From Octopus vulgaris (Eukaryota): a stretch of DNA of 64,000 nucleotides. The notes under the pieces were generated by a model, which saw only the letters and a list, made by a program, of their open reading frames with translations, had not been told where the DNA came from and did no database searches. The stretch lies in contig OX597831.1 in the NCBI GenBank assembly GCA_951406725.2, positions 49,662,001 through 49,726,000 of the forward strand, read 5' to 3'. The first letter of the stretch is position 1. Every line of letters begins with the position of its first letter. Positions 12,831 through 14,169 of this stretch are shown here, piece after piece. The position numbers and the translations under genes are program-made.

Positions 12831-13228
12831 AAATATAAAAAAAAAAAGGCTGCTATTTCTAATGAGTTCAGTATGTGGCAAAGTAATTTATTTTACTAAG
12901 CCCTTTATAAAATGTAATATTTTGAATTCGCCTTAAATGGTCCCTTTACATACTGAATACTTCGTGAAATTGATTAATAATTAATTAATTTTACCCTTAA
13001 TTGTTGAAATTATAATTCATTTCTCTCTGTTTAATGCTTCGGTTTTCACCGATAAAATTATGGTGTTTGCTAGGTTAGCCCACGTGGGTGGAAAGGGGAG
13101 GGCAGAAATTCTTCGCTTGCATATTTTGAATTTGTTGGCACTGTTAGTCTGAACGGATCTTCGGAGGTGAAAAGTCGCCAAAAGGGTATGCTCCTACTTT
13201 CAGTGTTTACAAATCCGAATTAAGGAAT

Positions 13229-13290
13229 TTTGGGCTGACGAAAGAAATGTCGAATTGTATTTGGCTGATCTAGAAACGTACGTTCTCAAA
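13229..13290 (+). ncRNA. type I hammerhead ribozyme, copy 1
   Basis: Stem I TTTGGG/CTCAAA; core CTGACGA (13235-41); stem II AGA..TCT with inner GTCGAAT/ATTTGGC; GAAA (13273-76); palindromic stem III ACGTACGT; predicted GUU cut after 13284. The A.A at the base of stem II is atypical. Confidence 0.75.
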
Positions 13291-13791
13291 TAACCTTTGC
13301 ACTTGTGATTTTTTTAATGTTTTTACCCCCATACCTTCGTGGGCTATTTTGAGTAAGCACTATCTGAGAGAAATTTTCTTTAAGTATTAGAATTTGGCTA
13401 AAAAATTTTTTGGCTGCTATTTCTAATGAGTTCAGTATGTGGCAAAGTAATTTATTTTACTAAGCCCTTTATAAAATGTAATATTTTGAATTCGCCTTAA
13501 ATGGTCCCTTTACATACTGAATACTTGGTGAAATTGATTAATAATTAATTAATTTTACCCTCAATTGTTGAAATTATAATTCATTTCTCTCTGTTTAATG
13601 CTTCGGTTTTCACCGATAAAATTATGGTGTTTGCTAGGTTAGCCCACGTGGGTGGAAAGGGGAGGCAGAAATTCTTCGCTTGCATATTTTGAATTTGTTG
13701 GCACTGTTAGTCTGAACGGATCTTCGGAGGTGAAAAGTCGCCAAAAGGGTATGCTCCTACTTTCAGTGTTTACAAATCCGAATTAAGGAAT

Positions 13792-13853
13792 TTTGGGCTG
13801 ACGAAAGAAATGTCGAATTGTATTTGGCTGATCTAGAAACGTACGTTCTCAAA
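13792..13853 (+). ncRNA. type I hammerhead ribozyme, copy 2
   Basis: Identical to copy 1, 563 nt downstream; predicted cut after 13847. Confidence 0.75.
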
Positions 13854-14169
13854 TAACCTTTGCACTTGTGATTTTTTTAATGTTTTTACCCCCATACCTC
13901 CGTGGGCTATTTTGAGTAAGCACTATCTGAGAGAAATTTTCTTTAAGTATTAGAATTTGGCTAAAAAATTTTTTTGGCTGCTATTTCTAATGAGTTCAGT
14001 ATGTGGCAAAGTAATTTATTTTACTAAGCCCTTTATAAAATGTAATATATATATATATATATATATATATATATATATATATATATATATATATATATAT
14101 ATATATATATATATATATATATATATATATATATATATATATATATATATATATGTATGTATATATATA

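Follow-up and report, generated by a model that had tools for sequence, protein, structure and literature searches.

A genome-wide superfamily of non-LTR retrozymes in Octopus vulgaris with a likely PLE insertion footprint

Introduction

Metazoan non-LTR retrozymes are non-coding tandem units of low GC content that carry type I hammerheads with a dimer-type short stem III and whose predicted RNA circle is highly self-paired (Cervera and de la Peña 2020, PMC7229834). Circular retrozyme RNAs are known from mussel, coral and axolotl (PMC7229834), and it has already been proposed that PLE enzymes mobilise animal retrozymes from circles (PMC7229834, PMC4209133), a view supported by co-occurrence and phylogeny (bioRxiv 10.64898/2026.07.22.740005). 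PLEs are recognised by incomplete tandem copies, by an arm that is inverted and 5'-truncated, and by a tail at one of the two ends (PMC8557442). For Poseidon PAc of Anolis, RT starts at two internal sites whose spacing gives the length of the tail, and both target strands are cut and extended by the protein; the anole PLE hammerhead needed protein, and insertion in vitro could proceed without the ribozyme (Frangieh et al. 2024, PMC11167929).

Here we analyse an array at 12849-14048 (+) of a 64-kb window, a stretch of 64,000 nucleotides of the Octopus vulgaris genome (contig OX597831.1, positions 49,662,001 to 49,726,000). The array shares with metazoan non-LTR retrozymes the non-coding tandem units, the low GC content, the type I hammerheads with a dimer-type short stem III and the highly self-paired predicted circle, and the A·A mismatch at the base of its stem II is paralleled by the U·U of HHR_Amex2 (PMC7229834). 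It differs from them in a unit of 560-575 nt against 170-400 nt, in a long interrupted stem II and in the GUU cut site of families A and B; two-armed insertions with fixed paired ends are seen here, and we found no description of them in the available part of that account (PMC7229834). Like the retrozymes interpreted as non-autonomous PLE derivatives, it co-occurs with PLEs and its unit falls within their range of 51-972 bp, but that link was drawn from phylogeny and pLTR homology in 35 species without molluscs, whereas here no pLTR homologue is detectable and the link is the insertion footprint (bioRxiv 10.64898/2026.07.22.740005). Hydra-clade PLEs likewise insert into (TA)n, carry canonical hammerheads, form 5'-truncated arms in tandem and inverted arrangement and bear a tail at one end, but the array, unlike them, has no ORF (Craig et al. 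2021, PMC8557442). Its tail of about 95 nt compares with 30-40 bp for PLEs generally (PMC8557442) and with 80-110 nt for the Hydra copies of this genome. As in Poseidon PAc, two internal RT start sites appear to define the tail, both target strands appear to be cut and extended, and the target is AT-rich (PMC11167929). Non-autonomous Chlamys PLEs such as MRC1 are likewise non-coding, PLE-mobilised and arranged in head-to-tail copies, but they lack canonical hammerheads and their 3' end resembles that of their autonomous partner, in both respects unlike the array (PMC8557442).

In the literature searched, with repeat libraries and subscription journals beyond its reach, we found no such family described for cephalopods and no count of paired ends; the family or its A·A variant may already be catalogued, and preprint supplements could list similar long units. 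Here the insertions themselves carry a PLE footprint, and two putative start sites are mapped to the base within a compensatorily kept structure. Since that footprint is mapped and intact candidate helper ORFs lie in the same genome, the proposed retrozyme cycle becomes testable.

Results and Discussion

The array consists of two 564-nt units (unit 1, 12849-13412, the 5' end of the insertion and a member of what we call family A; unit 2, 13413-13976; both +) and 72 nt of a third (13977-14048, +), with 99.2% identity over their overlap, in agreement with the 2.1 near-identical units of the original prediction. Positions within the unit are given as q, the window position minus 12848. The target is a (TA)n microsatellite, which flanks the array on the left (12644-12837, from TRF and the sequence) and on the right (14045-14170, from TRF); the partial third unit stops at q72, the short 3' site described below, and then passes into (TA)n, so that this insertion has one arm only, with a short 3' end. 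Six-frame translation of the unit gave no ORF, the longest stop-free frame being 58 aa, and the units are in tandem rather than LTR-flanked. Together with the failure to find a coding parent (below), this bears out the description of the array as a non-coding, retrozyme-like repeat.

Four further copies lie in the window. A two-armed inverted insertion of family B occupies 29344-30766, its minus arm (29344-30181) ending at the long 3' site and its plus arm (30180-30766) at the short one; both arms are identical across 511 compared bases, with predicted hammerhead cuts at 29639 (-) and 30563 (+). What had been taken for an array start at 29351 is instead a 3' end of this insertion, at 29344. 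A 5'-truncated single-arm copy with a long-site end and one hammerhead (predicted cut 34230) is found at 34139-34523 (+), and a short two-armed insertion of a D-like family, with the short end on the minus arm and the long end on the plus arm, at 54316-54637 (left end approximate). The copy at 47860-48225 (-) is an old, diverged member of a related family with a degenerate hammerhead region.

Across the genome (2.8 Gb, 227 contigs), a 21-nt core had 2,131 exact matches and a degenerate head motif 5,741, with 0 for the control in each case. We recovered four families: A, that of the window; B, 85% identical to A; C, 65-66% identical to A; and D, with a full unit of about 573 nt. At 94%, 101 units fell into 12 clusters. 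Short arrays are present on every large contig, arrays of about 10 units also occur, and 18/45 unselected loci of contig C1 have at least two tandem units in one arm. Contigs from three further organisms cover 28-30 of 30 bins of the unit; those of four runs presumed to be RNA cover 22-30 of 30 bins, and carry no end, strand or level information. We conclude that this is a real, young, genome-wide superfamily of non-LTR retrozymes. Two further candidates were rejected, namely family E as a second retrozyme, since it is not tandem and represents the 3' end of a Hydra family that is coding, and a 370-nt period in locus L202 as a unit in its own right. The latter (L202 1561-1930, -) is a deletion unit of family D that lacks the 5' half of the hammerhead core and yet forms a full tandem unit in its arm. 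At loci L240 (C1:33467000-33476900) and L235 (C1:13120500-13130000) whole insertions recur several kb apart together with their flanks, probably through local segmental duplication.

Both units contain a type I hammerhead of the same sequence, at 13229-13290 (located by descriptor and family comparison) and 13792-13853 (both +). The layout is TTTGGG-CTGACGA-31 nt-GAAA-CGTACG-TT^CTCAAA, where ^ marks the predicted cut, after 13284 and after 13847; the descriptor thus recovers the two cuts, 563 nt apart, where the original prediction had put them. In the first hammerhead, stem I (TTTGGG/CTCAAA) closes the 5' and 3' ends, as expected of type I with its CUGANGA/GAAA/UH core, CUGACGA lies at 13235-13241, GAAA at 13273-13276, and stem III is palindromic. 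Two features had escaped earlier attention: the cut triplet is GUU, and the base of stem II has A opposite A (13242·13272). The descriptor matched 6 times in the window, whereas 200 local shuffles yielded 0.005 matches on average, and Rfam at its gathering threshold gave no match. Purine-pyrimidine pairing at 10.1-11.1, where the PLE hammerhead consensus has G-C (PMC4209133), does not hold, with A·A in A, C and D and U·U or A·U in B. GUU is among the cleavable NUH sites listed in PMC3138052. Families A and B have GUU, while C and D have the canonical GUC. GUU is cleaved more slowly than GUC, and a GUU site combined with an unpaired 10.1-11.1 predicts slow cleavage.

The motif has been kept. 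CUGANGA is intact in 152/152 A/B segments; stem I covaries between families (GAG/CTC, GAG/CTC, CATG/CATG), with both sides changed in D (CCATG/CATGG); and stem II retains its base mismatch across families, followed by 3-4 pairs with compensatory changes. The letters of stem III change and stay self-complementary (ACGUACGU, ACAG-A-CUGU, ACGCGCGU), as the dimer type put forward at the outset would have it: the intermolecular duplexes have predicted energies of -9.8, -6.9 and -13.3 kcal/mol, and the same palindromes as monomer hairpins +2.1 to +2.4 kcal/mol. Axolotl HHR_Amex2, with U·U at the same place in stem II, cleaves, and better as a dimer (PMC7229834). Given the intact core, the covarying stems and this precedent, we regard the motif as a maintained dimer-type hammerhead, predicted to be self-cleaving. 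In Xenopus, 8/9 predicted dimer hammerheads failed to cleave in vitro (bioRxiv 10.64898/2026.07.22.740005); for the octopus motif we think activity, as a dimer or with the help of protein, quite probable. An unrelated type I hammerhead, with CUGACGA, G-C at the stem II base, a CUGCAG palindrome and a predicted cut after 15083, lies at 15011-15089 (+) in a TA-flanked repeat of another family.

Cleavage at both sites would release a 563-nt monomer (13285-13847, +), whose ends are brought close to each other by the predicted rod fold. Against 30 dinucleotide shuffles each, the circular fold of the sense strand had z scores of -4.4 (A), -6.8 (B) and -6.8 (C), and that of the antisense strand -3.4, -4.5 and -2.8, so that the monomer is predicted to be highly self-paired, as retrozymes are. 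A consensus fold built from 11 natural copies, chosen out of the 101 units in 12 clusters, comprises a long rod, from which the hammerhead branches off sideways, and a head that measures about 200 nt (q536 to q166; 13384-13578, +). This conserved head consists of three hairpins and a long-range helix and holds both fixed 3'-end sites, the short one at 13484 (q72) and the long one at 13578 (q166; both +), which are the putative RT initiation sites. Double-sided changes occur in 36/142 pairs against 11.6 in shuffles, 0/500 of which reach 36, a count biased in favour of the structure because these 11 related sequences had also served to predict it. The catalytic core is sequestered in the MFE fold, where stem I holds both cut ends together.

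The original prediction had pointed to the differing start and end points of the arrays and had suggested surveying them. We sampled 45 consecutive C1 loci (from the first 100 listed core matches), 20 best-hit loci and 3 window loci, which together hold 69 insertions, 54 with two arms back to back and 15 with a single arm. The 5' ends do differ: 121 of them are scattered over the unit, with 3 within 3 nt of the predicted cut (1.5 expected), and 161 segments read through the predicted cut site. The 3' ends are fixed instead. All of the arrays examined are free of coding sequence. Arms end 3' in (TA)n in nearly all cases, and they do so at two sites about 95 nt apart, the long site q166 (56 ends) and the short site q63-75 (53 ends), both of which abut TA-like letters. 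Two-armed insertions of families A and B pair a long with a short end in 49/54 cases (33/36 in the unselected C1 set); the exceptions are one long+long, one short+short, with a detached q69-166 piece nearby, and three with an end elsewhere. Where both ends lie at a fixed site, 49/51 are long+short (binomial p 6e-13 against random pairing), and the arms in this respect differ from Poseidon PAc in vitro, where no difference in start site was observed between the strands (PMC11167929). Judged by eye, the pairing holds in 8/8 two-armed insertions of family D and in 3/10 two-armed loci of family C; in each of the remaining seven, at least one end lies away from the fixed sites. No inversion junction pair was repeated among the two-armed loci listed.

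The insertions thus combine 5'-truncated tandem and inverted arms, a tail at one end and a microsatellite target, as PLE insertions do, if more loosely in family C. Paired fixed 3' ends are typical of PLEs, and a PLE enzyme therefore likely copies the retrozyme unit; by analogy with coding PLEs, we read the long and short ends as the tail signature left when RT initiates internally. That a PLE drives insertion into (TA)n had been proposed before, and the two-armed insertions with long and short tail ends now add evidence of a kind that the proposal did not have. We hold it very likely that the unit is a PLE-mobilised non-autonomous element.

On what template the enzyme would work can be approached through the differences between units. 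Units of one insertion differ by a median of 0.74%, and the nearest other sampled locus by 1.4%; the within-insertion distance is the smaller in 37/43 loci, for a sample that is a small part of the family, so that true neighbours may be closer. Leaving out L102, which holds two separate insertions, loci with at least three overlapping segments had 9,255 of 9,340 sites monomorphic, 76 singletons and 9 split, none of them by arm, and 31 array-wide private alleles (absent from other sampled loci) were found in 22/56 loci. Because sites never split by arm and private alleles extend across arrays, both arms must derive from a single template lineage. Two alleles are common to one unit of each arm in L073. 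Across loci, 30 polymorphism events recur against a null of 16±5, 8/30 of them at a homopolymer edge, and 40/154 events involve letters fixed elsewhere; split sites and recurring polymorphisms are more easily explained by multimer templates, or by subsequent gene conversion, than by a pure monomer. An imprint of A-to-I editing on the RNA strand was not seen (A>G 13 and T>C 28 array-wide, 4 and 14 unit-private). We rejected a cut linear monomer as the template, since 5' ends show no pile-up at q437 and segments read through the cut; the template should therefore be a circle or an uncut multimer.

Between these two we lean towards the circle, because the ribozyme has been kept, many subfamilies are concurrent and other retrozymes form circles; an uncut multimer is the less favoured template, if a credible one. 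Taken as a whole, a history in which the same PLE-mobilised element is copied from uncut linear multimers of long source arrays, with the hammerhead cutting rarely or serving another step, seems to us rather doubtful. Arrays of about 10 units do exist, the GUU / A·A hammerhead is a weak variant, and the unit-specific alleles common to the arms in L073, with 8 other split sites, are readily understood in this way; the missing 5' ends at the cut fit a multimer equally well, and the anole PLE inserts in vitro without need of its hammerhead, with no read ending at its site (PMC11167929). Yet each of the 12 clusters among the 101 units, which spread at once, would need a long master of its own, and a multimer does not sit well with inversion junction pairs that are never repeated among the two-armed loci listed, with a hammerhead and end-joining rod kept across families of 65-66% identity, or with the circles of mussel, coral and axolotl retrozymes (PMC7229834).

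The genome also contains coding PLEs that could supply the enzyme. Those of the Hydra clade were assigned by RWK/RWR, DKT, CxCX5C and the lack of CCHH, marks taken from PMC8557442, and several families have intact frames of 806-1090 codons. Examples of intact Hydra ORFs lie in L181 (2987-5404), L244, L245 and L247. Their copies show the same pairing: in Hydra H1, 5/6 pairs are long+short with a tail of 80-88 nt, the sixth having one end at an internal AT-rich break, and in H3 the tail is about 110 nt, while a young Neptune-like family has 6/6 pairs long+short and a tail of about 40 nt. The Hydra hammerheads have a 6-nt palindromic stem III (TGGCCA, CAATTG, CAGCTG), and in some of them a base at the bottom of stem II is left unpaired. 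With about 95 nt, the retrozyme tail is of a length that fits Hydra. No coding PLE resembling the head in sequence, and no 3'-end sequence shared with an autonomous partner, was found in 146 sampled loci, so the assignment of the helper uses only the length of the tail, the target and the style of the hammerhead; on these grounds Hydra is probably the mobiliser rather than another PLE clade. Naiad elements are reported for (TA)n in cephalopods. In one locus, L081, 62 nt at the junction between the arms are identical to a Hydra ORF 1.3 kb away, a single case that is suggestive of a Hydra link, but whose source may be nearby DNA.

A different possibility, raised already in the original prediction, is that the unit is nothing more than a pseudo-LTR, belonging to a coding PLE that has yet to be discovered, with the arrays as 5'-truncated by-products of that element. 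Every feature of the insertions is indeed PLE-like (PMC8557442), the loci sampled are only part of more than 1,000, and family E looked alike at first before it proved to be a coding Hydra 3' end. We searched for a coding parent with three protein searches (Hydra-type EN and RT pieces) and one DNA search (Neptune-like 3' end), scanning unit profiles over 667 kb in 122 loci that surround matches to PLE proteins or pLTRs, and over a further 24 loci of Neptune-like type. In none of these 146 sampled Hydra-type and Neptune-like loci was the unit the terminal repeat of a coding PLE. Unit matches near ORFs were insertions in their own right, flanked by TA, as established by reading five of them at base level and by the coordinates of three others, and L198, L237, L081, L054 and L185 were rejected as terminal repeats on reading the loci. 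Moreover, arms longer than one unit run into another unit, and none continues into an ORF in the 45 consecutive C1 and 23 best-hit and window loci; family E, a true terminal repeat, is not tandem; and no loose end in common appears among those shown for 8 runs. A coding parent of this kind is therefore improbable. More improbable still is a dispersed satellite amplified as DNA, by unequal crossing-over or rolling DNA circles, with the hammerhead as a relic: arrays are homogeneous and a DNA-level route has been proposed for some retrozyme arrays (bioRxiv 10.64898/2026.07.22.740005), but the evidence against it includes 3' ends that are fixed and strand-polar, inversions that arose de novo, the targeting of (TA)n, the occurrence of short arrays on all large contigs, a fold biased to the RNA strand and compensatory changes.

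On balance, then, we favour the reading that the array is a copy of a non-LTR retrozyme, likely inserted into (TA)n by the RT/GIY-YIG protein of a coding PLE. This PLE probably belongs to the Hydra clade, and the RNA that it copies is probably a circular monomer. In such a cycle, an array of at least two units would be transcribed, neighbouring hammerheads would pair through the palindromic stem III, cut and release the 563-nt monomer, and a host ligase would close it into a circle, which would be stable because the ribozyme in a monomer cannot form stem III. The PLE protein would bind the head of about 200 nt, cut both (TA)n strands, and prime one strand at q166 and the other at about q72; both cDNAs would run round the template, stop at random and join 5' to 5'. 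More tentatively, and in our opinion unlikely in all its particulars, a Hydra PLE dimer seated on the structured head might prime both (TA)n strands on the same RNA circle, one site per strand, so that two inverted tandem arms would be rolled out from the ribozyme-made 563-nt circle. Recognition would then be by structure, as the circle shares no detectable sequence with its helper. If true, this would name an enzyme and a mechanism for animal retrozyme transposition. The identity of the enzyme, the choice between circle and multimer, and the origin of the inverted arm and the tail are addressable by an in vitro assay of the type used for Poseidon PAc (PMC11167929).

Other Hydra-clade sequences of this genome deserve mention in their own right. 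Within the window, 58760-59900 (-) is a relic 3' end of family H1 that carries a hammerhead motif of its own near 59780 and has the long tail end at about 58765, and 18160-18640 (-) encodes a decayed Hydra-type linker and GIY-YIG domain (CxCX5C), which served as a query for coding families. In L181 (1486-6460), an H1 copy whose frame has 806 codons directly abuts the long end of a family E/H3 terminal repeat, as the result of either a nested insertion or a template switch. A miniature two-armed long+short retrozyme insertion (L235, L236 1200-4900, L237 7500-9501) lies within the 3' UTR of another Hydra family, a UTR that is several kb long and rich in microsatellites; the insertion has the same flanks at several loci and is apparently a passenger. 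Finally, L241-L251 comprise at least five young, high-copy Hydra families whose frames span 800-1090 codons and whose 3' UTRs exceed 1.5 kb; they are longer than the elements of <3 kb described for the Hydra clade.
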